Below, piece by piece: positions 4,266-60,075 of a stretch of 64,000 nucleotides of DNA. Source of the stretch: a virus (lineage: Duplodnaviria; Caudoviricetes); IMG/VR virus record IMGVR_UViG_3300042887_002440, positions 1,899 to 65,898 of that record. The stretch is one strand, 5' to 3'. The stretch's first letter is position 1; the number at the start of each line of letters is the position of its first letter. A program made the translations under genes and the position numbers. Under the pieces are notes generated by a model, which was given only the letters and a program-made list of their open reading frames with translations, was not told the origin of the DNA and made no database searches.

Positions 4266-4709
4266 TTATAATCCTAGGTCTTTTTCAGTAAGAATTTTAA
4301 ATTCCCACTTTCTGTCCATACAATATTCTCTTGCTGCTTTCCATTTAGCTTGATTTATTGCGTAAGTACACACTTCTGTTATATATTGTTTAGTAATTCG
4401 TTTTTTAATTTCAGGAGCATTTGCTTGATATTCTGGTTTTATTTCAAGCAAATATGTTTTTATTCTTCCATCAGCTCCTTTAACTTTAGCCCAAATATCC
4501 GGAAAATATCTATGTAATTTTTGGTCTACTGGGGATTTATATGGAATGACACATTCTTCCGATGCCCATTCCAACACTGATGGATTATCATCCATCCATT
4601 TAAAAACCCGCAATTCCCAGCTACTTCGATAAACAATATTGCTTGCGTTACCTTTATATTTGCTTGGGTTTTTAGGAGGGTAAATTCCTTGTTTATAGTT
4701 TCTAGCCAT
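4266..4709 (-). CDS. gp4: Head completion nuclease (TnsA-like PD-(D/E)xK fold)
   Basis: YKQG.Y.PKNPSKYKG, YRSSWE, W.SEE..IPY, RYFPD, EIKP and N.AKW.AA motifs. Confidence 0.92.
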   Translation of the reverse strand: MARNYKQGIYPPKNPSKYKGNASNIVYRSSWELRVFKWMDDNPSVLEWASEECVIPYKSPVDQKLHRYFPDIWAKVKGADGRIKTYLLEIKPEYQANAPEIKKRITKQYITEVCTYAINQAKWKAAREYCMDRKWEFKILTEKDLGL

Positions 4710-16086: not shown

Positions 16087-19000
16087 ATGCTAAATTTTAA
16101 TGTACATCCATACTATGATGATTTTAACGAAGATAAGAATTTTCACAGAATTTTATTTAAGCCTGGAGTAGCTGTCCAAGCAAGAGAGCTAACTCAAGCA
16201 CAAACTATTCTTCAAGATCAAATAGGAAAATTAGGAAAATTTGTTTTATCAGATGGTTCTAATGTCACAGGCGGAAAATATTCTATTGATACTAATGTCA
16301 GATCTTTAAATATCGCTAATGTAGGTACAATTGCAGATGATATTTTAAATTTTGATGGTATGGTAGTTGTTGGAGAGAATTCTCTTAGCGTGAGTTTAAT
16401 TGTTTCTGTTGATATTTTAAACTTTTATCTTGTTGTAAAACCAATAACTAATGCAGTAAGCAAATATCAATCAGGGGAAACTCTATTAATATTTTCAACA
16501 AAAGAATTGGCGTATGATTATTTAACTAATAATTTAATCCAACCAGATTATACTGCAACATTATTTACAGAGCCTACTCCATTTTCTGTTTCATTAAGCG
16601 GAACTAGATATTCAACAATATTAACTGGAGTTCCGGTTAGTGTTAAAGTTGGCGATACTTTATCTGCAAATTATAATACAGCAACTCAAACTGATTATAT
16701 CGTAACAGAAAAACTTGCGGATACCAATGGCTCTGTTATTGTTAATAGACAACTAACAGAAGATTATGTAAGTAAAACATTTACAGTATTACAATATGCA
16801 TCAAAAACAGTACAAGAAGTTAGCTTTTCTGAGGGTGTTTATTTTACAAACAACACGTTTGTAAAAGCATTGCCACAAAGTATAGTTCCGAATTCAGCAA
16901 CACAATACCCAAGTTGTGTAGTTGGATATGAAGTTGTCGAAACAATTTTAGATTATGTTGATGATCCATCATTATTAGATCCAGCACAAGGTTCATACAA
17001 CTATACAGCTCCTGGATCAGATAGATATAAAATTTATTTAAACTTAGTATCTAAACCATTAGTTTATGGGACAATAGAACAATCATCGTTAACTACAGCT
17101 AAATTTATTGAATTATTAAGATTAAAAAATGGCGTTATTGTTTCAGATAATACTAGTCCAGTTTTAGGCGGATTGCAAGAAATACTTGCAAAACAAATGT
17201 ATGATCACGCAGGTAATTTTATTATTTCTCCATTCACAATTTCATTTAATAATTCTGATTTTAGAAATAATGAAACTATGTTAAATTGTAGCGTTGCTGC
17301 AGGAAGAGCATACGTTTATGGATATCCATACAATGCAACATTCCCTACAAATTTAACAAATATTACTAAAGCAAGAGAAACTGCGTCAGAATCAAATGTT
17401 ATCACTAATACAAATTATGGTAATTTCATAAAAGTAAAAAGTCTATCTGGTGGATTACCGTATCCAAAATTAGGAACAAAGGTAGAATTTTTTGCAAATA
17501 CAAAAACTCAGATATCTGATGCAGGTAAATTAGGATTTGGTTACATAAGAAATATGGATTTTATTGATACAGATAACTACGGGTTATATTTGTACGATTC
17601 AAGCATTTCACAAAAAGAAATGTTAAAAATTAAATCTGTAAAAGCTGTTGGTGGTTTCCTAGCGAATACAATACTATCAACAACAGGAACAACTGAAGTT
17701 CAAGATACAAATTCAAATAAATTATTATTTAAATTAAAATATTCAAATCCAGCATCATTATCAAATGTATTGGTAACTTTAGATTCATTTGTTCAAGATT
17801 TACAAGTTACAACAAATAAAGCATATATTATAACAGATAGCCCAACTATTAATTTTGCTACTGGAACATCAACAGATTTATCTTTAGAATTAAAAAATCA
17901 AAATTATATTGTTGTTGCAAAAACTGCCGTTGATGGATATACAGTTGGTCAATATATTGATTTATCTCATGTTAAAATTAAAATTGAAGATATTACAACT
18001 GGATATAAAACAACTATTGAATTTTTAACTGGATATGAATATTCGGGTAAAATTGATGTAAAATATAGTTTATCGTATACAAACGCAACTAAAAAACAAA
18101 AAACATTAGTACAAAATAAAGTTGCACAAGTTACAGCAAAAACTGTTCCAACAAATATCGGTTATGCTGATGTTGTTAAATTTAAAGGTATATTTGCAGC
18201 TTCAACTCCGGTAACAAGCTTTTCTAGTTCTGCATGGAATTCTTCAACATCATATACGAAAGGAACTGTTGTACCATTTAGCGAAAAATTATATATAGCT
18301 GTTAGCGATAATACAGGTCAAGATCCATCAAGAGGATCGTCATATTGGAATCAATTGAATGATGTGACAAAACAATATAAAACTGATAATGGTCAACGCG
18401 AATATATGTATGATCATGCAACTATTACAGCACAAACTTCAAATTTTGCAAAAACTGTTTTTGTATTGTTTGATTATTTTACACATTCAGAAAATGGTCA
18501 ATATATTGCTTTTGATTCATATTCAATGGATTATAAAGATATTCCTGTCGTAAAAATCAATAATATTTCATATGAATTAAAAAATTATATTGATTTTAGA
18601 CCAAGAAAAAAAGATATTACTAATAATGTTATTACTGGAGAATTTAATTCATATAATATTCCATCTTCTATAACTAATTCTTCATTGAAATATAATATGA
18701 CTTATTATATGGGAAGAATTGATAAATTAATTTTATCTCATGATAGAAAATTACAGTGGTTGACTGGCAAATCTTCGTATAGAAATTATATTCCGCCACG
18801 AGATTTACCTGACGCAATGACTATTGCGACAATTCAATTTGATCCATTTACACCAGATCTAAAATCTATAAAAATAAACTACGAAAAACACCGTAGATAT
18901 ACTATGGATGATATTGGTGGATTAGAAGAACGCATTCAAAATGTTGAATATTATACTGCATTAACTATTGGCGAGAAATCTGCACTAAGCACTAATATCA

Positions 19001-22000
19001 TTGATCAGTATGGAACAAGATTAAAAAATGGATTTATTGTTGATTCGTTTACTAATTTTACTATTTGCGATATCCAGAATCGTAATAATACATTTTCTAT
19101 TGATTTAGATAAAAACGAAGCTACAGCTTCGTTTAAAGATAAAACATTCAATTTAACTACATCTGTATCTTCTTCTGGATTATTAGATCTTAGAAGAAAT
19201 AAATTAGTTGGGTTTACATACGAACAAGTTCCATTAGTAACACAAACAGCTGCAACTTCGTATATAAAAATAAATCAATTTAATGCAATATCTTATCTTG
19301 GTTCTATGGAATTAGACCCTCAAAAAGATATATACACTGATGTTGTTTCAACCGTAAACAAAATTGATGAAAATACTACAGCATTTATGAATGCTTCTGA
19401 AATTCCAGGAATATTATTAGATTCTACTGGATTGTTACGTCAAGAAACAAGTAAAATTTATTCAGTTACGGATAATTCTCAACCGGCAACTAAAGTAAAT
19501 ATTAATAACGATACATATACAATAACAGCATCAACAAAAAAACTTAGAGAAGATACTGCTGAAGTTGCATTAACTACAAACATACACCCAACAACTAGAT
19601 CTATTCATATAAATTTTTTAGCAAGTGGGTTGGCTCCATTAACTAAAATGTTTGTATATGTTAATGGACAAATGGTAAATGCGTATGTTACCCCACATGA
19701 AAATCCAAAAGGCGCAATCACTACTCTCAATATATTAGATAAAGGTGCTGGATATGGAGCATGTACTTCTCCAACATTAGTAATATCAAATGATACTTCT
19801 AACAACCCAGCTACATTTAAATTAACAACAGATAGCGGTTCTATTAAAACTGCATCCATAGTTAATTTTGGCTCTGATTATTCAACTATGAATACTATTA
19901 TTTCAAGTGTTTCTAGTTCAGTTGTACCTACAGCAAATGCAGATGTTCAAGTATCTACTGTTCCAGTACAAGGTTCGTATTTATATTCAAATAGATCTGG
20001 TATTTGCGGAGGAACCTTAGATTTACCCAATGGTTTGATATCATTTCAAAAGGGTGAATTAGTAATAGCAATAAGCGACACTCCTCATGGCGATTTACAA
20101 AATTCATTGGCATATGCTCATGCAACTTTTTATTCATCGACAAAATATGTGGAAAAAACTATATTTTCAATAAGAGAACCAGTAATATCAAAAGCTGTAG
20201 GAACAATTCAACCACCATTACCATCAAGTGGAAAACGTATTTGCGTTCCAGCAAGCTTGCAATATCTAATATATCATTATGGAAAAACATATGCATCTGA
20301 CGTGCAAAATGGAACCCTTAAAATTCCTGTATATTTAAGCGCTCTTCCAACAAGTGATGTTACAGTAAGATTTTTACCGAATGCTTCTGAAGATAAATCA
20401 CAAGCATCTGCAATAACATCATATTCACCAACAACATTAACTTTTACTGGGTCAAATTGGAATGCGCCACAAGAAGTTTCAATTGCATATAATCTGGGAA
20501 CAAGAAAAGAATATACCGATAGAAATAATGTAAAACAATACTTAGATAATAACTTACCTTCGTATGTTGAATTTTATTCAGAATCGGCTGATCCAGCATA
20601 CAATCATCCAGATACCGCATTACCGTTTAGATCTTGGTTATTACCAAGTCCCGTAATTGGTGTCAGCTCAGTGCATTTATCTCCATATAAAGTGTATGAC
20701 CCTAAAGCTGGACCTTCTGCTGCAACTAGTCCTTTTGTTGATATTACAACTATAGATCAAGCATTTCCTGTTGTTGGCGGAGAAGGATTTATAACAGTAA
20801 CATATGGCGGAGGAAATGATATTGGTTGGTGGAGTCAAACTGCTAATAATCCATATCCATTAACATTTAGTTTTACTACAGATAGTAGTCCTGCAAAAGT
20901 AGAAGCAATTAGATCAGAATATACAGATGTTGATTCTAATGTTGTAAAATCTGGTCCAATATTAATTGTAAATAAACCTGATCATCAAGTTTTATCTTTT
21001 AAATTTTATGTTAGAGGATTAGTAGAAGGAACGACAAATATAACTGTATCTACAATATCAGCATACGCTCCATGGAATGGTTTATCAAAAACTGTTTCTG
21101 TAACTGTAGGCGCAGCATTAACAACTGCAACCCCTGATATAGTTGTGCATAATAATGTTATTGCTTCTACCAAAGAAGGATTACAAGTTAGTGCTCCTAG
21201 AGTAACAAATTCAAAAGGTGGAACTAATATTATTGGCGTAACTCTAAGCACGCAACCGGCATCTGCTGTATCTATTAAAGCAAATTCATCTATTATCCTT
21301 AATGGAGGAAATATCTATAACGTATCCAATAATGGAGTTGAGTTAGTTAGCGGAAATACAATTTCGTTCTCTACTTCTGATTGGAACCAGATGAAATCAA
21401 TTGTTGTTACTGGAACAAACGACCCAACAAATTTTGATAAACAAAATACTATACCATACAACGTTTATTTAAAAGCTACATCTTCTGATGGAAACTATAA
21501 TAATAAAACTAAATCGGTAGAATTAACAAATATAGATTATATCGATATTGCGGGTGAAGTAAAAGTATCTTATGTTAGCAAAAATAACGCAAAATTAATA
21601 ACTTCTAAAGAAACTAAAGTAGTTACTTTACAATTTATATTAAGTAGAAAATTAAATTTTGGACAAGTAGTTAAAGTATTTGTCACATCAGGAAATACTA
21701 CAGAAGGAGGAAATGTTTTATTTGGTGGAAGTGTTGCCACATCAGTAACGCTAACATTTACATATGGAACTGAATTTATTCCTCAATTTGTACAAGTACA
21801 AGGGATAGATATTGAAGGTTCAACTGAAGGAGATATTAATTACAAAATAAATTACGAATCTCAAGAATGGAATACTGTTACTAATGCTAAATTAGTTCCT
21901 TCTGAATGGAATGGAACAGGTTCAATTGATGCAACAAATCATAAATATGGTACTCCAACTACTATTAAAGAAGTATATAATGATTTTTCAACAAGAACAG

Positions 22001-22956
22001 TAACTGCTGCTCCATTAATCGGACCAGGAAAAATAAGAGAAGTTTCAAGATGGGCTCCTGATTTTACAGTATCAAGTGCAACAATAAAAGTAGTTAAAAC
22101 AGGAAAAGCTGAAAACCCAAAAGCACAAATTATATCAGTAGATTCAGGTAGCTCAACAAGTCCTGGATCTATTAAACTACAAGTATCTGCAAATTTAACA
22201 TCAGCTTCATATGGTTCCGACACTAAAAGATATAAACAAGGAAATACAACAGTTAGAGTCGAATTAACTAGAGGATCAAATGCTGATTGCTTTTTCTCTA
22301 AACATACAGATATAACATATGAAACTAAACCAAAAGATGACCCAAATCACGGGGAAACGTATTATGGCACGATTCAATCTATAACAAAAGATAAAGCAAT
22401 TTTCGATATTTATTTGCACGGAGGGGCAGGTTCGTCAACAAAAAAAGTTCCTGTTATGTCTACTTATAACATAAAAGGGGTTTATTTAGATCCTACTCCA
22501 GGATTTAAAATTACTGATACTATTGAACAATATACAGAAGTTAGAACGTTTAGAACTGATAATTATGTCCAACAAGGCGAAGTATTAAAAACTACGGAAA
22601 TTTTAGACCAGAGTTTTGAGTATATTCCATCAAAAACGACTACTGATGATTTCCACAGAAAAGCTGTATATGATGCAGTACATATGGTTGTTAATGGAAA
22701 GTCCTATCCCGTTAGCCCATATCCAGATGATATAGAAAGTACATATACAAGTTATTCTCCAACGCAAGCTGATGTGACGAGAAAACAAGAATTACGAGAT
22801 TACTATACTAAACAAATAACAACAATAACTGAGTTTAAAAGCAAAATAGATACAAAAAATAGCAAAACTTCTCCAGATCCGTTATTAGCTGCTGCGAGTG
22901 CGTATCAACAAGATTTGATAAATTCGTTTCAAGCAAAAATAAATAGTATAGTATAA
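16087..22956 (+). CDS. Large virion structural protein, VrlC/DUF4815-like N-terminal part, with carbohydrate-binding and Ig-like inserts
   Basis: NFNV.PYYDDF...KNFHRILFKPG.AVQARELTQ.Q, APG.DRY, DFRP, RYTM.DIG.LE.RI.N.EYYT.L and KNGF.VD.F motifs. Confidence 0.8.
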   Translation: MLNFNVHPYYDDFNEDKNFHRILFKPGVAVQARELTQAQTILQDQIGKLGKFVLSDGSNVTGGKYSIDTNVRSLNIANVGTIADDILNFDGMVVVGENSLSVSLIVSVDILNFYLVVKPITNAVSKYQSGETLLIFSTKELAYDYLTNNLIQPDYTATLFTEPTPFSVSLSGTRYSTILTGVPVSVKVGDTLSANYNTATQTDYIVTEKLADTNGSVIVNRQLTEDYVSKTFTVLQYASKTVQEVSFSEGVYFTNNTFVKALPQSIVPNSATQYPSCVVGYEVVETILDYVDDPSLLDPAQGSYNYTAPGSDRYKIYLNLVSKPLVYGTIEQSSLTTAKFIELLRLKNGVIVSDNTSPVLGGLQEILAKQMYDHAGNFIISPFTISFNNSDFRNNETMLNCSVAAGRAYVYGYPYNATFPTNLTNITKARETASESNVITNTNYGNFIKVKSLSGGLPYPKLGTKVEFFANTKTQISDAGKLGFGYIRNMDFIDTDNYGLYLYDSSISQKEMLKIKSVKAVGGFLANTILSTTGTTEVQDTNSNKLLFKLKYSNPASLSNVLVTLDSFVQDLQVTTNKAYIITDSPTINFATGTSTDLSLELKNQNYIVVAKTAVDGYTVGQYIDLSHVKIKIEDITTGYKTTIEFLTGYEYSGKIDVKYSLSYTNATKKQKTLVQNKVAQVTAKTVPTNIGYADVVKFKGIFAASTPVTSFSSSAWNSSTSYTKGTVVPFSEKLYIAVSDNTGQDPSRGSSYWNQLNDVTKQYKTDNGQREYMYDHATITAQTSNFAKTVFVLFDYFTHSENGQYIAFDSYSMDYKDIPVVKINNISYELKNYIDFRPRKKDITNNVITGEFNSYNIPSSITNSSLKYNMTYYMGRIDKLILSHDRKLQWLTGKSSYRNYIPPRDLPDAMTIATIQFDPFTPDLKSIKINYEKHRRYTMDDIGGLEERIQNVEYYTALTIGEKSALSTNIIDQYGTRLKNGFIVDSFTNFTICDIQNRNNTFSIDLDKNEATASFKDKTFNLTTSVSSSGLLDLRRNKLVGFTYEQVPLVTQTAATSYIKINQFNAISYLGSMELDPQKDIYTDVVSTVNKIDENTTAFMNASEIPGILLDSTGLLRQETSKIYSVTDNSQPATKVNINNDTYTITASTKKLREDTAEVALTTNIHPTTRSIHINFLASGLAPLTKMFVYVNGQMVNAYVTPHENPKGAITTLNILDKGAGYGACTSPTLVISNDTSNNPATFKLTTDSGSIKTASIVNFGSDYSTMNTIISSVSSSVVPTANADVQVSTVPVQGSYLYSNRSGICGGTLDLPNGLISFQKGELVIAISDTPHGDLQNSLAYAHATFYSSTKYVEKTIFSIREPVISKAVGTIQPPLPSSGKRICVPASLQYLIYHYGKTYASDVQNGTLKIPVYLSALPTSDVTVRFLPNASEDKSQASAITSYSPTTLTFTGSNWNAPQEVSIAYNLGTRKEYTDRNNVKQYLDNNLPSYVEFYSESADPAYNHPDTALPFRSWLLPSPVIGVSSVHLSPYKVYDPKAGPSAATSPFVDITTIDQAFPVVGGEGFITVTYGGGNDIGWWSQTANNPYPLTFSFTTDSSPAKVEAIRSEYTDVDSNVVKSGPILIVNKPDHQVLSFKFYVRGLVEGTTNITVSTISAYAPWNGLSKTVSVTVGAALTTATPDIVVHNNVIASTKEGLQVSAPRVTNSKGGTNIIGVTLSTQPASAVSIKANSSIILNGGNIYNVSNNGVELVSGNTISFSTSDWNQMKSIVVTGTNDPTNFDKQNTIPYNVYLKATSSDGNYNNKTKSVELTNIDYIDIAGEVKVSYVSKNNAKLITSKETKVVTLQFILSRKLNFGQVVKVFVTSGNTTEGGNVLFGGSVATSVTLTFTYGTEFIPQFVQVQGIDIEGSTEGDINYKINYESQEWNTVTNAKLVPSEWNGTGSIDATNHKYGTPTTIKEVYNDFSTRTVTAAPLIGPGKIREVSRWAPDFTVSSATIKVVKTGKAENPKAQIISVDSGSSTSPGSIKLQVSANLTSASYGSDTKRYKQGNTTVRVELTRGSNADCFFSKHTDITYETKPKDDPNHGETYYGTIQSITKDKAIFDIYLHGGAGSSTKKVPVMSTYNIKGVYLDPTPGFKITDTIEQYTEVRTFRTDNYVQQGEVLKTTEILDQSFEYIPSKTTTDDFHRKAVYDAVHMVVNGKSYPVSPYPDDIESTYTSYSPTQADVTRKQELRDYYTKQITTITEFKSKIDTKNSKTSPDPLLAAASAYQQDLINSFQAKINSIV

Positions 22957-41587: not shown

Positions 41588-41612
41588 AAAAAGGGAGCTT
41601 CGGCTCCCTTTT
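41588..41612. terminator. Bidirectional intrinsic terminator with cUUCGg loop
   Basis: AAAAAGGGAGC-TTCG-GCTCCCTTTT between convergent gp23 and the modification operon. Confidence 0.92.
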
Positions 41613-41621
41613 CTATTGTAT

Positions 41622-42164
41622 TTAAAATAAGAAAGAATTAATTTTATCTAAAATTATTTTTTGATCATCAAGAGTATTATTAGAATATGATTCTATAATG
41701 AATAAAAAATCCATATTAGTTTGAATATTTGATATTTTTGATTTTCTACCTTTTAAAAATGTTTCAGATTGATCTGAACCCCTATCAGAATAACGTTCAG
41801 TTAATAATTTCTCATCTGCTGTCAATACAATGATTTTAAATTCTGTATCTGGTAGAGAAGATAAAAAATTAAAGAATTTTGAATTTGTTAATCTATCCCC
41901 CTCAAATATAATATTTGAATTACAGTTTGAAATAAAGTCTACTGCAGCAGGTTGAACTGCCATACTCATTCTATCTGTACCAGCAAATATTTCTCCTTCT
42001 TCATACTTTCCCAAAATATGACAATCGTATTTTTCATTATATAAAGTAGGAACTAATTTAACTGGTTCTTTAGCAATCCAATCTTTTTGCTCATCAATAA
42101 TTTTCTTAAACAAAGTAGTTTTACCAACTCCTGGTCTACCGATTACAGCTAATATTTTTCTCAT
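41622..42164 (-). CDS. P-loop nucleotide kinase-like protein (DNA-modification associated)
   Basis: Walker A GRPGVGKTT, AGTDRMSM, IFEGDRL and R...RGS.Q lid; last gene of the operon. Confidence 0.75.
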   Translation of the reverse strand: MRKILAVIGRPGVGKTTLFKKIIDEQKDWIAKEPVKLVPTLYNEKYDCHILGKYEEGEIFAGTDRMSMAVQPAAVDFISNCNSNIIFEGDRLTNSKFFNFLSSLPDTEFKIIVLTADEKLLTERYSDRGSDQSETFLKGRKSKISNIQTNMDFLFIIESYSNNTLDDQKIILDKINSFLF

Positions 42165-42173
42165 AACAATTCC

Positions 42174-43193
42174 TTAAAAAAACGCATCAATACCTATTAA
42201 TTGTACTTCTTCATCACTAAACATCCATTCAAGATATTCTAGTTTTCCAGTATTAATGAAATTACTAAATTTAAATTTATCTATACCTGTTCTTTTATCT
42301 AAATTTGATGTTAAATATTCGCTTCTTGCTTGCCATAGAACATTCCAATCAATACCGATCCAACCATCATTTTCAGCTAAAAGTATTTCTTCTGCTTGCC
42401 TATCTAAATAATATCCAAGATACCTTCCTCGTTTTTCTCTAAAAATTTTCTTAAATGAACATAAACAAGTTTCCATAGTAAAAAAATCTAAATTGTAGTT
42501 TAATTCAGGAAATCTATGTGACATTTCTTGTAAAATGCTAATAGCTTCTTGTTCTAAGTAATCATATTGTTCTTTTGTTAATTTCGTATCACATTCAGAA
42601 TCTCTACCTAAAGCTAGCAATAAACCATTTCTATGGGATCTAGAACCACTATAATCATTTAACATTAAAGAAGTAGGTTCAATTTTAATATTAGCTGTTG
42701 ATTTTAAATGCTGTAAATAAAACCAAGTAGAATATCTTCCAAATTTATAAAATTTAGAATTTACAATTTCCCATAAATTTTTAAAATTTTCTTTTTCATT
42801 TTGCCCATAAAAAGATTCTATAGCCTGTTTTTGGGTTGAATTAGAAACAAATTCTTTATAAGAATTAAACATTACAGGTAAATGCCCTTTATTCCATTTT
42901 GTATCAGTTTGATATCTCAATTTTAAATAATTTTCAGTATTCCAATTATTTAATCTATCATAAGTTACTAACTCAAAATCAGGAAACTCATTTAATAATA
43001 CCCAAGATGTAGGTAATTGATATGTATTGCTATATAACCAACAAAACCATATTTTTTGTTCTGAATTATGTTCAAACCTTTTATTTAAATAATTAGTTAA
43101 CCATACAGCTGGATCACAATCATTATATTTTAAAGACCAAGCGTACCAACGAATAAATGCTTCTCTTCTATTTTGTTTTATTCTATAATCCAT
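42174..43193 (-). CDS. Amino acid:DNA transferase-like protein (aGPT-Pplase2 family, HhH-glycosylase-like fold)
   Basis: DCDP, W..WLY..TY, FGRYSTWFYLQHL and ETCLCSFKK...GRY.GYY motifs recognised from thymidine-hypermodifying phages. Confidence 0.72.
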   Translation of the reverse strand: MDYRIKQNRREAFIRWYAWSLKYNDCDPAVWLTNYLNKRFEHNSEQKIWFCWLYSNTYQLPTSWVLLNEFPDFELVTYDRLNNWNTENYLKLRYQTDTKWNKGHLPVMFNSYKEFVSNSTQKQAIESFYGQNEKENFKNLWEIVNSKFYKFGRYSTWFYLQHLKSTANIKIEPTSLMLNDYSGSRSHRNGLLLALGRDSECDTKLTKEQYDYLEQEAISILQEMSHRFPELNYNLDFFTMETCLCSFKKIFREKRGRYLGYYLDRQAEEILLAENDGWIGIDWNVLWQARSEYLTSNLDKRTGIDKFKFSNFINTGKLEYLEWMFSDEEVQLIGIDAFF

Positions 43194-43633
43194 GGATTAG
43201 TCGCGCCATCATTAATGTAAATTGTTAAAGCATTAACTAACATATCAATAACTTTCTTATGTAGTTCGTTATCTTTTGCGAAATTTGGATCTGGTATTTT
43301 TTCCTCACCAATCAAACTACTAATTCTAATAGATTTCTTTGAAGCATCAACTCCAAATTTAGAAAATAGCCGCTTTTCATTACTATCGTCCATATAAAAA
43401 ATAACATCAGCCCAATCAACCAACTCTTTTGATATTGGTGTTGATCTAATTCCATCAGTAGGGAATCCTTTTTCAGTTAGAGCCAATCGCATTTTTTTAG
43501 CAGTTATTTCTCCGCCATTAGTATCTTTTAAAGCCGCAGATTTAATTTCCCAATCTGGTTTAAATTTTTGTAAAATTATTTCACCAGCAGCACTTCTGTT
43601 AATATTACCATGACAAACGAATAAAATTTTCAT
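43178..43633 (-). CDS. Low-molecular-weight phosphatase (LMW-PTP/ArsC fold)
   Basis: N-terminal ILFVCHGNINRS (CX5R P-loop), WAD.I..MD and IPDP general-acid motif. Confidence 0.88.
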   Translation of the reverse strand: MKILFVCHGNINRSAAGEIILQKFKPDWEIKSAALKDTNGGEITAKKMRLALTEKGFPTDGIRSTPISKELVDWADVIFYMDDSNEKRLFSKFGVDASKKSIRISSLIGEEKIPDPNFAKDNELHKKVIDMLVNALTIYINDGATNPWIIE

Positions 43634-44598
43634 ATTCCACTTTCCTGTAATTCCAACATAATAGGATATACATCTTTTGCTGTTATAGTTCCTATTGCAT
43701 CAATATCTATTCTCTTTCTTAACGCAGAAAGTCTATTTGATATTTCAGTCTTAGTATTTGTATCAAAATTAGTCCACTGATATATTTGTTCAGCTTCAAA
43801 ATTATATGGTTGAAATTTAGGAAAAGACCAATCTTGTTCCATATAAAATTCTCTAGGGGAAATATCATCTAAATTCAATGCTGCATTTAAAAATTGTTGA
43901 CACCAACGAATACAAGATTCCATTTCTACCATATCTAACGTTCCAGGAAAATGTCTAAATTCTATGGTATTAGTTTCTTCCCACATTTGTCTCAAGTTAA
44001 TTCCAGCTCTAGGGGAAAAATACCACATTCTACCTTTTTCTGTTAATGGAGCATGTTCCTCGTAAAATTCTTGAGTAGTTTTTGCTGCTAGCATTGCATC
44101 AACTCTATTTTTCGGTAATTTATATTGATGAGATTTATGACGACGTTTCATTCGTTTCAAAGCCCATGTATATTCCAATGCAGGCATTGTTGATTTATTT
44201 GGTACAGGTATAGTTTCAACTATATCAAATGCTTGTTGTTGGTATCGTTCAATATATTTTAATAATTTTTTACAATCTTCTAAATTATCTTTTAGACCTG
44301 GAACTCTTACATGAATATGTAAATTACTTCTATAATTAACGTTTGGTGCGGGAGATAATGCTAAGTTAATTAATTTAATATGTTCTATTTGATCTTCTAT
44401 ACTATAAGTTGGTTTTGTATTAATTTCTCCACCAAATGAGTATAATTTGCCATGAGGATCGTTTCCAATTCCAGTTGAACTAACGCATGTATTATCTTTA
44501 TCATTCCAAGCAGCACCATCTGGCAATTCACAAAATCTATATGAATCACCATATTCCAATTCAACTCCATAACTCCATGCATCTACATCATAATTCAT
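43630..44598 (-). CDS. Amidoligase (glutamine-synthetase-like COOH-NH2 ligase)
   Basis: YGVELEY, GGEINT, LHIHV and TIEFRHFPGT motifs. Confidence 0.8.
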   Translation of the reverse strand: MNYDVDAWSYGVELEYGDSYRFCELPDGAAWNDKDNTCVSSTGIGNDPHGKLYSFGGEINTKPTYSIEDQIEHIKLINLALSPAPNVNYRSNLHIHVRVPGLKDNLEDCKKLLKYIERYQQQAFDIVETIPVPNKSTMPALEYTWALKRMKRRHKSHQYKLPKNRVDAMLAAKTTQEFYEEHAPLTEKGRMWYFSPRAGINLRQMWEETNTIEFRHFPGTLDMVEMESCIRWCQQFLNAALNLDDISPREFYMEQDWSFPKFQPYNFEAEQIYQWTNFDTNTKTEISNRLSALRKRIDIDAIGTITAKDVYPIMLELQESGI

Positions 44599-44637
44599 AC
44601 ATAAATCCTCTTAGATATTTTTGTTTTACTAATATTT

Positions 44638-45324
44638 TCATAAATGTTGAAAGTCTTTACTATTTTCAATAATTTCTTCTTTAAAAACTTTGTTTAAATT
44701 ATTATCATATGTTACATATGTATTTAATGCAACTTCTATTGGTTTTTCTTTAATACCTGCTCTTTTTGGTATATTTTCAGTTGAAGTTATTATAACAGAA
44801 TTATTTAAAGAAGTAACGTATATTGGTCGTTTACCATTTCTAAAAACTTGTAATGTTTTATTTGCTGATAGAGTACAAACAGCCAACGAACTATCTTTCC
44901 ACTTAATTAATGGAGAAATATTCTCTTCTATTGTATGTAATAACAATTCAGAGTCATTTTTTGTCGAGCAATCATATCCGTATAATTCTTTCCACTTTTC
45001 TGGCAATTCTTGTGTGATTACTCCATTATGCACTACGGATATATTTTTATTAGAAATAGGCTGATTATATTCCAAATCACTTGTGCTATATCTACAATGA
45101 CCAATAAGATAAAGATTTCCATCTTCGTTTATATAATCTAAAAAATTAAATTCAAATTTATTTGCTGGTACTGGAAATGATATAGTATGAACAATATTAT
45201 CTTTTACATACGATAACCCAGTAGCATGCAACCCTCTAATACTAGATTCTAAAAATATTTTATGTATCAAATCAAAATCTAAATTAGAGGGGTTTTGCAT
45301 TAAAACCCCTATAACTGCACACAT
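44638..45324 (-). CDS. Class II (Ntn) glutamine amidotransferase, stand-alone domain
   Basis: Cys2 nucleophile (MCAVIG), RGLHATG, GHCRYST, NQP, HNGVI and DSE motifs. Confidence 0.88.
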   Translation of the reverse strand: MCAVIGVLMQNPSNLDFDLIHKIFLESSIRGLHATGLSYVKDNIVHTISFPVPANKFEFNFLDYINEDGNLYLIGHCRYSTSDLEYNQPISNKNISVVHNGVITQELPEKWKELYGYDCSTKNDSELLLHTIEENISPLIKWKDSSLAVCTLSANKTLQVFRNGKRPIYVTSLNNSVIITSTENIPKRAGIKEKPIEVALNTYVTYDNNLNKVFKEEIIENSKDFQHL

Positions 45325-46706
45325 TAAAAAAAGTTCTCCAAAGTGTTACCAAATTGCGTATCGTATAAATCTTTATGATAGGTTTGTAACCATTCTTTAC
45401 CATTGGGTTGCTTTAAAAGATAATCTACCCATTCTTGCGATTCCCACAATCCAGGAGTAATACCATTCCAACGATATCTTTGATCTGGGTGATCGGGATT
45501 TAATCTACGACTATCAATAAATTCTCTACGAGTATTTTCATAATCATAAGAACCTAGCGTTAACATACCTTCATGGAAGAAAGCAATCATACTAATTCTT
45601 TCTGCATCAGGATCTTTTAATACTAATTCAGTATTTCCATGTAATCCAGCTTGATTATTTACCAATAACAAGTCAGTTGGTCTAACATTAACAGCATAAC
45701 CTATTTCTGGAAATACCAAATAACAGCCTTCATATTGGTCATTATTAGACATAACACAAAGATTAGCAAATCCATCTTCCATATTAGCAGGATCGTAATG
45801 ACCAGCAGTACGGAAATTTTTATTTACAGTAATTGTTGTAAATGGAGTTTCCGGAACAACAAATCTATGATCAATTGATTCTGCAGCTCGTTTTTGATTA
45901 CCGTAACGCCATGGTAACATATCTTCAAATCCTTTAGCTAAAGATTTTAAGAATGGATACGACTTAGCAAACTTTTCTGCGTTATCTCTGGTGTATGTAG
46001 TTGGTCTACCATAAGGAATTCTAGGATATCTATCATACCAACCAGCAATACCAGAATTAACAACATTAGCATAAGTCGTTTTACTAATAAATTTATCTAA
46101 AATACGTTGAGCTTCAGATTTTGCTTCATCAATAGTTAATGTACATAATTTATCAATAAAATCATTAAATACAAATTGTTCAGTTTTAATTTTTTCGCTT
46201 AACCAAACAACTCCACGACTATCATCACATTTTAAATTTTTATATTTTGCTCTAATTGCATCAACATCAACTTTAGGATTATATTCGCCAAATACTGAGG
46301 TTGAGTTTTTATGAGCAAAAAATTCTAATAAATCAAATTGTTCATCAGTAACCCATTCTCTTCCTGCACAAGTAGCAGTTCTTGGTCCACCAGCCATACC
46401 GCGATTTTGAGTTTCAACTGCTGCATCTCGTAAACCAGCATAAGCCGCTGCTGCTTCTTCTTTATTAAAGAAGTTTTTACGAAACTTAAACACGATATTT
46501 TTTTCTGATAAACCTTTTGCGCAACCAGAGCAATTTAAATCATTATCGCAATTTTCCTCTGCAGTAAAATCAGAGCAATCTGGGGGAAGATATAAATCCA
46601 TATCTTCTTCTACTAATATTTTATAATGACTTTCATTAAGCCATTTACCAACCAAATCAGGTCTTGGAGTTACCTCTTCCGGTCTTAAAACAACAACTTG
46701 TACCAT
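45324..46706 (-). CDS. TET/JBP-family 2-oxoglutarate/Fe(II) dioxygenase
   Basis: PFTTITVNKNFRTAGHYD (HxD), G.YLVFPE, DLLL, LHGNT (distal His) and RIS...F (2OG-binding Arg). Confidence 0.82.
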   Translation of the reverse strand: MVQVVVLRPEEVTPRPDLVGKWLNESHYKILVEEDMDLYLPPDCSDFTAEENCDNDLNCSGCAKGLSEKNIVFKFRKNFFNKEEAAAAYAGLRDAAVETQNRGMAGGPRTATCAGREWVTDEQFDLLEFFAHKNSTSVFGEYNPKVDVDAIRAKYKNLKCDDSRGVVWLSEKIKTEQFVFNDFIDKLCTLTIDEAKSEAQRILDKFISKTTYANVVNSGIAGWYDRYPRIPYGRPTTYTRDNAEKFAKSYPFLKSLAKGFEDMLPWRYGNQKRAAESIDHRFVVPETPFTTITVNKNFRTAGHYDPANMEDGFANLCVMSNNDQYEGCYLVFPEIGYAVNVRPTDLLLVNNQAGLHGNTELVLKDPDAERISMIAFFHEGMLTLGSYDYENTRREFIDSRRLNPDHPDQRYRWNGITPGLWESQEWVDYLLKQPNGKEWLQTYHKDLYDTQFGNTLENFF

Positions 46707-46734
46707 CTATATCTCCTATTGTAAGTTCACATAT

Positions 46735-46763
46735 ATTATAATATATAAATTAAAAAAAGTAAA
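46735..46763 (-). promoter_or_regulatory. Sigma70-type (early) promoter of the modification operon
   Basis: Minus strand TTTACT-N17-TATAAT; AGGAGA ribosome-binding site before the ATG at 46706. Confidence 0.7.
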
Positions 46764-58524: not shown

Positions 58525-58971
58525 ATGAAAATATGTCCAAAATGTTTTATTAAACATGATAAAAATGGAAAATACTGTTCTAGAACTTGCGCTAACAGTA
58601 GAACTTGGTCAGAAGAAGATAAACATAAAAAACGGTTAACCGTATTAAAAACTTTAGGTATGGAATATATCCCTAAAACCGCTAAAGCCGAAAAATGTTA
58701 TCCTAATGAAACGGTTTTTGTTGAACATTCAAGTTATTCTAGGCGTAGTTTAAAAAAGAGAATAATTGAACAAAATTTGCTTAATCATTGCTGTCAAGAA
58801 TGTGGGTTGAAACATGAATGGAATGGGAAACCAATAGTTTTGCAATTAGATCATATTAATGGTATTAATAATGATCATAGAATAGAAAATCTGCGTTTTC
58901 TTTGTCCTAATTGTCATACGCAACAAGATACTTATGCAGCAAAAAATATAAAAAAAAATAAAATTGGGTAG
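58525..58971 (+). mobile_element. Free-standing HNH endonuclease gene in the tRNA cluster
   Basis: CxxC, LQLDHING...DHRIENLRFLCPNCH; N-terminal CPKC...YCSRTC zinc finger. Confidence 0.9.
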
Positions 58972-59376: not shown

Positions 59377-60075
59377 TTATGTGAATAATATTGATTCAAT
59401 TAAGTGTAATTTTAATTTGGAAATATATTCTTTATGCGATATTCTTATGGTTTGAATATTATAGTGTTTGAGAATTAATGCATCTCGTTGTAAATCATAT
59501 TCTTTGGTTTGTTCATGTTGAGATCCATCTAATTCTATTAGTAGGTTTAATCCTGGAAAATAAAAATCTCCGTAATATAATTTAGTAGGACATCTAAATG
59601 TTTTATTTTTTATAAAATTTGTATAATTGTTTTTTAATAGCCAATTTTCAAATGATTTTTCTAAATATGAAGGTGAACTTCTATTTCTATTTTCGTTGGG
59701 ATTCCAACCATTATCTATTCTATTTCTTACATGGTTGGATAGTAATATAGATTTACATTTAGTTGAACACGTTTTACCTGTTCCTGTGTGATATTTTTTG
59801 CATATTATACATAGTTTTATTTTTGTATATGGATAATAATTCTTTGGTTTTGTTCCTTTTTCTGGTCCACTTTTGAATTTTGAATAATCTTTATTTCTAT
59901 TTCCATATTTTGCAGAACATGATGATGAGCAAAATTTGTTTTTGTTAAAAATTGGGTTATTACACTCAATACAATATGATTTAATAACGTGTTTTTGTAG
60001 GTGTTGTTTTAATGATTGTGATGTTATTTCTTGTTTACAAATAATACAAGAACATCTAATATTAAATTTAGACAT
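59377..60075 (-). mobile_element. Free-standing DUF559/Vsr-like endonuclease with zinc-ribbon repeats, antisense in the tRNA cluster
   Basis: S.LE..F, YYGDFYF, LIELDGSQH and D..RD motifs; several CxxC/CSxxC repeats; late TATAAATA on the minus strand at 60164-60171. Confidence 0.82.

Follow-up and report, generated by a model that had tools for sequence, protein, structure and literature searches.

A candidate cassette for post-replicative thymidine hypermodification, with a predicted GATase-AADT amidotransferase, in an uncultured T4-like virus

The 64,000-nucleotide stretch of viral DNA analyzed here (the window) carries a cassette of six minus-strand open reading frames (ORFs; 41622-46706) that encode a TET/JBP-type dioxygenase, a stand-alone class-II (Ntn) glutamine amidotransferase (GATase), an amidoligase, a low-molecular-weight (LMW) phosphatase, an amino acid:DNA transferase (AADT), and a P-loop kinase (Table 1). 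The cassette is reversed relative to its plus-strand neighbors, gp23 (Pfam Gp23, 2.5e-141) on one side and, on the other, a tail-tube-like gene in the position of gp3, after which come UvsY and UvsW. Its genes are tightly packed: kinase and AADT are separated by 9 nt, AADT and phosphatase overlap by 16 nt, phosphatase and amidoligase overlap by 4 nt, amidoligase and GATase are 39 nt apart, and GATase and TET overlap by 1 nt. Our data point to a pathway by which thymidine would be hypermodified in finished DNA and in which the GATase and the AADT would form a glutamine-dependent amidotransferase; we favor this pathway, taken as a whole, with moderate confidence.

An initial annotation of this DNA had described six packed or overlapping minus-strand genes between gp23 and gp3, and the ORF coordinates are exactly as claimed. 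All six protein families predicted there reach the curated Pfam cut-offs, and the catalytic motifs that had looked intact are present and invariant in relatives for the TET, GATase, AADT, phosphatase, and kinase. The core of the cluster is also syntenic in other viruses. A scan of viral contigs with the window AADT retrieved 337 relatives, and the best 80 loci were kept for neighborhood counts. In 36 of the 80, the DNA spans the full cluster from TET to kinase; TET, AADT, and kinase were required for inclusion in this set, which holds 31 distinct TET sequences and several near-copies. Although the GATase was no selection criterion, it is present in all 36, and every spanning relative thus has TET, GATase, AADT, and kinase.

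Table 1. Features of the cassette and its borders (positions in the window)
Feature	Position	Strand	Basis
P-loop kinase, 5-HMUDK homologue, 180 aa	41622..42164	-	Pfam AAA_18, Ploopntkinase3; phrog_800
AADT (aGPT-Pplase2-type) DNA transferase, 339 aa	42174..43193	-	Pfam ADDT; phrog_3271
LMW phosphatase, 151 aa	43178..43633	-	Pfam LMWPc
Amidoligase_2 / glutamine-synthetase-like carboxylate-amine ligase, long subtype, 322 aa	43630..44598	-	Pfam; phrog_2443
Stand-alone class-II (Ntn) GATase, 228 aa	44638..45324	-	Pfam GATase_6
TET/JBP-type dioxygenase, long ParB-less form, 460 aa	45324..46706	-	Pfam Tet_JBP; phrog_24024
Bidirectional terminator hairpin between the convergent gp23 and kinase genes	41589..41612		Terminator scan
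Promoter-like TTTACT-17-TATAAT upstream of the TET gene	46735..46763	-	10/12 consensus matches

Predicted oxidation and activation of thymine

The TET enzyme matches Pfam Tet_JBP (E = 3.2e-23; 82.2 bits against a cut-off of 34.9) and phrog_24024 (2.1e-134). All 32 sequences compared have H303, D305, H356, and R370; we take the first three to be the Fe(II) triad (HxD...H) and R370 to be the arginine that binds 2-oxoglutarate. An AlphaFold 2 (AF2) model of the protein (pLDDT 80) resembles human TET2 with a Z score of 19.2 (264 residues; rmsd 3.9) and NgTET1 with a Z score of 17.9, and AlkB-type enzymes reach only 12 to 14. The core is 39% identical over 283 columns (hhalign E = 1.4e-53) to gp18 of HTVC112P, a 302-aa TET whose gene is preceded by a ParB-like gene. 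Compared with HTVC112P gp18, the window enzyme has an additional Cys-rich loop (residues ~42-66), a ~95-residue insertion (~115-210), and a C-terminal extension, and it runs ~67 residues past the end of the alignment with that protein. The Cys-rich loop has four Cys in the window; only part of the orthologues have it, and it may bind a metal. A ParB domain fused into the TET N terminus was considered and rejected: the fold alignment to TET2 begins at residue 1, Pfam is empty for residues 1-235, and the protein atlas returns only weak Tet_JBP clusters (0.79).

The likely substrate can be read from three complete relatives (L116-L118), which are genomes with direct terminal repeats. All three have ThyX, and none has a ThyA-family gene or a dUMP hydroxymethylase. 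A C5-methyltransferase (C5-MTase) is likewise found in none of the three, and the same search recovers the HhaI-like methylase of phage Melnitz as a positive control. Thymine is therefore the likely substrate of the TET, which would likely convert T to 5-hydroxymethyl-dU (5-hmdU) in finished DNA. Together with the homology of the enzyme, these genomes support the proposal of the initial annotation that the hydroxymethyl handle is made after replication by the dioxygenase. T-to-5hmU activity is reported for both ParB-dependent and ParB-independent phage enzymes, including members of clades C1/C2, and GATases, P-loop kinases, and AADTs are described as consistent companions of the ParB-associated clade (O'Toole 2026, PMC13229309).

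Alternatively, the substrate may be 5-methylcytosine (5mC): a methylase of phage or host would produce 5mC, the TET would oxidize it to 5-hydroxymethylcytosine (5hmC), and the kinase and transferase would act on 5hmC. In clades A/B, the phage TETs act as dioxygenases on 5mC (Burke 2021), and a cultured relative, Methylophilales phage Melnitz, has (L087:2511-6591) an HhaI-like C5-methylase, a 328-aa TET, a 427-aa unannotated protein, and a kinase that is 33% identical to that of the window. The Melnitz cluster is a cytosine version of the pathway. Furthermore, the source of the window, a 65,898-bp IMG/VR viral record without end repeats, is estimated to be 37% complete, and a hydroxymethylase, C5-MTase, or ParB may therefore be encoded elsewhere in the phage, which also tells against our own reading. 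However, the three complete relatives are free of C5-MTases, the TET core most resembles a ParB-associated enzyme, a type presented as a T-dioxygenase in O'Toole 2026, AADT chemistry is established on 5-phosphomethyl-dU (5-PmdU) in Lee 2021, and C5-methyltransferases co-occur with only 6% of 5mYOX pathways. We thus consider a cytosine substrate very improbable.

Activation of the hydroxymethyl group was ascribed to the P-loop kinase, and this assignment is supported by homology to a proven enzyme. The kinase is just over the cut-off in two Pfam families, AAA_18 (6e-7; 30.4 bits against 29.4) and Ploopntkinase3 (2.8e-6; 27.5 bits against 27), and matches phrog_800 at 4.4e-14. Its Walker A motif (G9-T16) is intact and invariant in relatives. 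A profile built from 31 relatives aligns with the proven 5-hmdU DNA kinase (5-HMUDK) gp54 of phage M6 over 123 columns (hhalign 94%, E = 1.4e-7), and the alignment extends beyond Walker A to take in the motif GKYxxGxxxAGxDR.

The TET and the AADT have C termini that resemble those of DNA polymerases. The family-B DNA polymerases (gp43) of the three complete relatives end in SSLEDFFG. In the same genomes, the TETs terminate in ..SLE[SGDE]FF, the AADTs in ..GLE[NA]F, and the GNATs in similar tails. In the window, the corresponding ends are TLENFF for the TET (45324-45347), GIDAFF for the AADT (42174-42197), and GIETFLED for a gp55-like protein; the C termini of GATase, amidoligase, and phosphatase are free of such a tail. 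Tails of this kind bind the gp45 clamp in T4 and RB69. Their likeness to the ends of the relatives' DNA polymerases suggests that TET and AADT dock on the sliding clamp.

The GATase and its candidate partner

The AADT matches Pfam ADDT (1.2e-19; 71.4 bits against 26.2) and phrog_3271 (1.2e-54), and mean column identity across 24 relatives is 85%. C245 is invariant, also in comparison with the AADT of Cr30, a cultured Caulobacter phage that has a TET and a kinase as well, with the ViI-like Ag3 protein, and with M6 gp51; E241-x3-C245 aligns with E-T-V-L-C of M6 gp51, and the E241...C245 pair is found in 22 of 22 aligned AADTs. These residues correspond to the essential Cys and nearby Glu defined for AADTs (Lee 2021, PMC8989533), and C245 is the counterpart of the catalytic Cys247 in PaMx11 gp46, for which structures have been solved (8Z2M/8Z2N; PMC11472151). 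The window AADT also aligns over 93% of its length with ViI-like proteins, at ~28% identity. Both the identification of this ORF as an AADT and its assignment to phosphate substitution are consequently borne out, the latter by homology and by the presence of the essential Cys and Glu.

The GATase matches Pfam GATase_6 (1.7e-11; 44.7 bits against 27) and starts with MCAVIG. C2, R78, N100, G101, and D124 are invariant in relatives; by family, C2 would be the nucleophile, and N100-G101 would form an active-site loop. Profile searches of solved structures gave no match for the GATase and a single chance match (E = 0.61) for the AADT, despite the solved structure of PaMx11 gp46.

Three lines of evidence tie the GATase to the AADT. 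First, long AADT homologues of 604 to 671 aa are, in nine of nine cases, fusions of an N-terminal GATase (MCG...) with a C-terminal ADDT domain, and the two halves are homologous to the separate genes of the window (5e-54 for the AADT and 3e-24 for the GATase). In class-II amidotransferases, the glutaminase domain lies N-terminal to the acceptor domain, and the fusions have this architecture. Second, the GATase is kept without any amidoligase in 15 of the 36 spanning relatives. Third, a family complex model of AADT and GATase scored 0.94, 0.94, and 0.93, and the best of three controls scored 0.00; in the reference sets, 116 of 157 solved complexes and 2 of 215 mismatched pairs attain this mark, figures that apply only roughly here because the alignments were our own. 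At least 97% of contacts recur between runs, with a partner pLDDT of at least 92. The GATase face that is buried in the model (residues 1, 28-33, and 101-102) lies beside the nucleophile and the N100-G101 loop, and the interface motifs R39-[YFW]-E41 and (N/Q)EFP(D/E)(F/Y)E are shared by all 18 GATase-coupled AADTs compared and by none of the 4 uncoupled AADTs.

Because of the fusions, the amidoligase-free relatives, and the complex model, we favor the AADT, and not the amidoligase, as the partner of the GATase. The proposal of the initial annotation that a GATase/amidoligase pair builds or amidates the appended group is therefore the less well supported one. This coupling implies that ammonia derived from glutamine probably replaces the phosphate, giving 5-aminomethyl-dU. 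Another locus may illustrate the same chemistry: L095 encodes a GATase-AADT fusion together with a 5-hmdU kinase, a GNAT, a ThyA-family protein, and an HMUDK helical domain, its Pfam matches include no FAD enzyme, and, by analogy, it would follow the logic of the route to 5-acetylaminomethyl-dU (5-AcNmdU) in PaMx11 without the detour over glycine and FAD. In L094, too, a GNAT-like gene comes after the GATase-AADT fusion.

A different division of labor has to be weighed here. The AADT may transfer a free amino acid, as in M6, PaMx11, and ViI, and the amidoligase may then activate its carboxylate with ATP and use ammonia from the GATase to produce a carboxamide, thereby removing the charge. Such a route would agree with the precedents, for the characterized AADTs all use amino acids or putrescine, not ammonia, and the carboxylate is removed afterwards in every known pathway (Lee 2021, PMC8989533). 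In the window, moreover, the GATase gene adjoins the amidoligase gene (39 nt) and not the AADT gene, and distant GATase homologues (25-28% identity) stand beside amidoligases in tf/PaP3-like phages that have no AADT. Glutamine-synthetase-like enzymes are also known to use ammonia. The precedents, the gene order, and the distant homologues speak against the amidotransferase that we propose, and so does the AADT tree (22 rows), which does not resolve the GATase-coupled enzymes into one clade (three label changes against a minimum of two), its long branches (M6 gp51, Ag3, and L097) making placements unsafe. However, the carboxamide route does not explain why 15 of 36 relatives have the GATase without an amidoligase, why nine of nine long AADT homologues are GATase fusions and none of three long amidoligase homologues has a GATase domain, or why the complex model puts the active-site face of the GATase on the AADT; the amidoligase is tied to the phosphatase instead (see below). 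We regard this route as unlikely, if worth keeping in mind.

Tailoring genes and the proposed pathway

The family and fold assignment of the amidoligase is weak but coherent. The protein is only just over the cut-off of Pfam Amidoligase_2 (9.7e-5; 22.8 bits against 22), for which the amidoligase of the window-type relative L061 scores 29.4 bits, and it matches phrog_2443 at 5.9e-8. The top Foldseek matches of its AF2 model (pLDDT 81) are the gamma-GCL domain of GshF (2.7e-4), glutamine synthetases, GshA, YbdK, and PafA. The phosphatase matches Pfam LMWPc (1.3e-16; 61.5 bits against 23.2); its motifs C8-H-G-N-I-N-R14-S (CX5R) and D115-P align with those of YwlE, and among PDB structures it is most similar to the arginine phosphatase YwlE (6.4e-9) and to LMW protein tyrosine phosphatases.

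The two genes travel together. Amidoligase matches of at least 50% identity occur in 12 of the 80 loci, and the phosphatase is present in 11 of these 12 (not in L031) and in none of the other 68. A longer amidoligase homologue, P0010 (50% identical), is a triple fusion of amidoligase, LMWPc, and TAGT; it was not found in viral contigs and was found in metagenome contigs. In one of these, L097 (9-2543, 8099-12769), a family-A DNA polymerase fused to UDG, topoisomerase genes, a GATase, and an AADT are followed by P0010 and a P-loop protein, and L098 (53% identity) encodes, in this order, amidoligase, LMWPc-TAGT, and kinase. In phage Simon, the amidoligase gene adjoins the phosphatase gene, and their neighborhood includes Nmad5, an HD nucleotidase, and genes for an HMUDK helical domain and a ThyA-family protein. 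From the fusion, the adjacency, the linkage in 11 of 12 loci, and the context in phage Simon, we conclude that amidoligase and phosphatase are one coupled unit of thymidine hypermodification clusters. The 5-hmdU cluster of phage Simon has no detectable GATase or AADT; a 456-aa protein encoded upstream of its amidoligase was considered as an AADT and rejected (hhalign E = 0.45).

Among the 36 spanning relatives, the middle of the cluster is a module that varies: a short amidoligase plus a GNAT in 17, a GNAT-like protein only in 15, and a long amidoligase plus LMW phosphatase, the window type, in four. Further genes come and go as well. Seven loci have a second 2OG oxygenase, 22 have a 147-aa protein between AADT and kinase, and three have, inserted between these two genes, a 498-aa radical-SAM protein with a B12-binding-like N terminus (L014:11017-12513). 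Ten have a 431-aa accessory protein (F8) between GNAT and AADT (e.g., L011:5994-7295), which is absent from the window, has no Pfam match, and gives weak PHROG matches to ParB-like partition proteins (1.8e-5 and 2.4e-4).

The first step of our model draws on protein family, gene context, and the assays that have been published for related enzymes: the TET/JBP enzyme would hydroxylate thymine in finished DNA to 5-hmdU, and the P-loop kinase, by homology to a proven enzyme, would phosphorylate 5-hmdU to 5-PmdU. AADT and stand-alone Ntn-GATase would then act as a two-subunit glutamine-dependent amidotransferase: Cys245 of the AADT would attack C6, the phosphate would leave, and ammonia released at Cys2 of the GATase would add to the exocyclic methylene, with 5-aminomethyl-dU as the product. 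The last step is the least certain. Amidoligase and LMW phosphatase may form one tailoring unit, for which we would name, with low confidence, the ATP-dependent joining of a carboxylate to the new amine as the most likely function; the phosphatase would strip phosphate either from 5-PmdU that has not reacted or from a phosphorylated acyl group. GNAT acyltransferases would stand in for this unit in relatives. The polymerase-like tails of TET and AADT may serve to dock both enzymes on the sliding clamp, and a likely use of the modification would be to guard phage DNA against host nucleases. In its most specific form, in which the GATase-AADT pair converts 5-PmdU directly to 5-aminomethyl-dU, amidoligase and phosphatase build an N-acylated aminomethyl-dU, and TET and AADT ride the clamp, the model is tentative, and we would place it somewhat below an even chance.

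Several further points weigh against the model, every step of which is inferred. Since phage Simon has the amidoligase-phosphatase pair without GATase or AADT, the pair needs no 5-aminomethyl-dU. The HMUDK families of Pfam, PF18748 and PF18723, are not among the best 25 of the 26 matches of the kinase (E ≤ 0.1). The TET gives reason for caution, too: ParB_N was found neither in the 65.9-kb record, which is a fragment, nor in the three complete relatives, and the record in this respect resembles those ParB-less members of clade C1 that are described as inactive on T or 5mC, with no detectable activity in earlier assays (O'Toole 2026, PMC13229309). It is thus imaginable that the cassette performs no working DNA hypermodification, either because the ParB-less TET is inactive or because the enzymes act on nucleotides, RNA, or protein; LMW phosphatases mostly act on proteins, and three of the cassette proteins (amidoligase, phosphatase, and GATase) have no polymerase-like tail. 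This reading is hard to reconcile with catalytic residues that are all invariant across 24 to 32 relatives, with synteny kept in 36 of 36 loci, with the 337 relatives in viral contigs, and with the resemblance of the TET and AADT tails to the relatives' DNA polymerase, and we hold it to be highly improbable.

Known systems and genomic setting

Cassettes of this kind are already published as predictions, with no product reported in the texts of Lee 2021 and O'Toole 2026. Lee 2021 (PMC8989533; Fig. 2, sequences 22-25) presents contigs in which TET_JBP replaces the dUMP hydroxymethylase beside 5-HMUDK and AADT, and notes amidoligase and glutaminotransferase domains of unknown function in such contigs. 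The metavirome TET_JBP/5mYOX clusters of these two papers share with the window the gene set, the source in IMG/VR contigs, and the predicted logic; the window differs by its long 460-aa ParB-less TET, its LMW phosphatase, the lack of a GNAT, and the inversion between gp23 and gp3. The statement of the initial annotation that no characterized base is made by this combination holds for the literature examined, but the combination itself is in print, and its novelty was overstated. The LMW phosphatase is absent as a cluster gene from the main texts of both papers, figures and supplements aside, and the unit of amidoligase and LMW phosphatase is undiscussed in these texts.

The closest biochemical precedent is the route of PaMx11 to 5-acetylaminomethyl-dU by the kinase gp49, the glycine:DNA transferase gp46, the FAD lyase gp47, and the acetyltransferase gp48 (Lee 2021; PMC11472151). 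The window has in common with it the kinase, the catalytic Cys of the AADT (gp46 Cys247 and window C245), and a predicted 5-aminomethyl-dU intermediate that would then be N-acylated. In PaMx11, however, a dUMP hydroxymethylase provides 5-hmdU, and the amine is derived from glycine by FAD-dependent cleavage, whereas in the window 5-hmdU would be made by the TET, the amine would be supplied directly by the predicted glutaminase, and tailoring would fall to amidoligase and phosphatase instead of a GNAT. Phages ViI and M6 (5-NeOmdU and 5-NedU) are linked to the window by the similarity of its AADT to ViI-like proteins and the homology of its kinase to M6 gp54; they differ by using serine or glycine, PLP and radical-SAM enzymes, and pre-replicative 5-hmdU, and have no TET, GATase, amidoligase, or phosphatase. 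The Pseudomonas phages of the tf/LUZ24/PaP3 type have their Ntn-GATase homologue next to Amidoligase_2 genes, but that GATase has 531 aa and a C-terminal domain of its own, ATP-grasp and AIG2-like genes are present, and TET, AADT, and kinase are missing.

With PurF, GlmS, and AsnB, the GATase-AADT pair shares a Cys nucleophile right after Met, an N-terminal glutaminase in the fused forms, and an active-site face buried against the acceptor. Unlike in these enzymes, the acceptor in the window would be the DNA-base-flipping AADT fold with an electrophile in polymeric DNA, and the two activities reside on separate polypeptides. If the model is correct, the GATase-AADT pair would be the first glutamine amidotransferase with a base in polymeric DNA as the acceptor, and N-acylated aminomethyl-dU built in the proposed way would be a base so far unseen. 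Iyer et al. 2013 reportedly defined the aGPT-Pplases and may already mention GATase-AADT fusions. In the searched literature, which does not extend to that work or to figures and supplements, no link of glutamine or of GATase fusion to AADT chemistry was found; "ammonia" and "amidotransferase" are absent from PMC11472151, and "glutamine" is absent from the papers that use "5-NmdU".

Thymidine hypermodifications shield phage DNA from restriction and other nucleases, and the enzymes serve in the labeling and sequencing of modified bases. TET-initiated GATase clusters are abundant, as the number of AADT relatives in viral contigs indicates, and their product is unreported in the literature examined. 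Our analysis turns a GATase of unknown role into a concrete hypothesis, namely that glutamine nitrogen is delivered by a glutaminase docked on the AADT. If true, enzymes would reach aminomethyl-dU in DNA by a shorter path than the one over glycine and FAD in PaMx11.

The host of the cassette is an uncultured T4-like aquatic myovirus. The window, with a G+C content of ~30%, is a T4-like core block: by Pfam and PHROG matches, baseplate genes are followed by gp18, gp19, portal, prohead protease, scaffold, and gp23, and beyond the cassette and the first genes on its far side come gp47/46-like genes, gp45, gp44/62, and RegA. Methylophilales phage Melnitz, Stenotrophomonas phage DLP_6, cyanophage S-SKS1, and Pelagibacter phage HTVC008M have capsid proteins that are 60-62% identical to that of the window.

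In relatives, the cluster lies elsewhere. It comes after UvsX and the gp41 helicase, also in L061, and a gp23 or gp3-like gene is within reach of it in none of the 80 loci. In a T4-like contig (L096:2152-9194), the genes next to gp3/uvsY/uvsW encode a TET (45% identical), a 238-aa protein, a GT1-like protein, and an AADT (27% identical), which is other cargo at the same junction as in the window. The different location in relatives and this gp3-adjacent cargo indicate that the cassette has moved and that the gp23/gp3 junction is a recurrent landing site.

The terminator that had been predicted to close the operon is real and is common to the cassette and the convergent gp23: the hairpin is G+C rich, has 10 pairs (5 of them G-C) and a loop of 4, and is flanked by A/T runs on both sides. 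As for the single sigma70 promoter claimed at the other end, the sequence match is there, but promoter-like sites are no commoner in this AT-rich region (31 found) than in shuffles (35.7 ± 6.2), and a role as the one promoter of the cassette is therefore unproven.

Other genes of the window deserve brief mention. A 147-aa minus-strand ORF with a TnsA-like endonuclease N-terminal domain (4266-4709; PF08722, 3.6e-23) stands amid the baseplate genes, and an HNH endonuclease ORF (58525-58971, plus strand) and a DUF559 (Vsr-like) ORF (59377-60075, minus strand), both probably mobile genes of the homing type, lie between replication genes. The baseplate/tail-fiber region contains a 2289-aa plus-strand ORF (16087-22956) with three DUF4815 stretches (1e-52).

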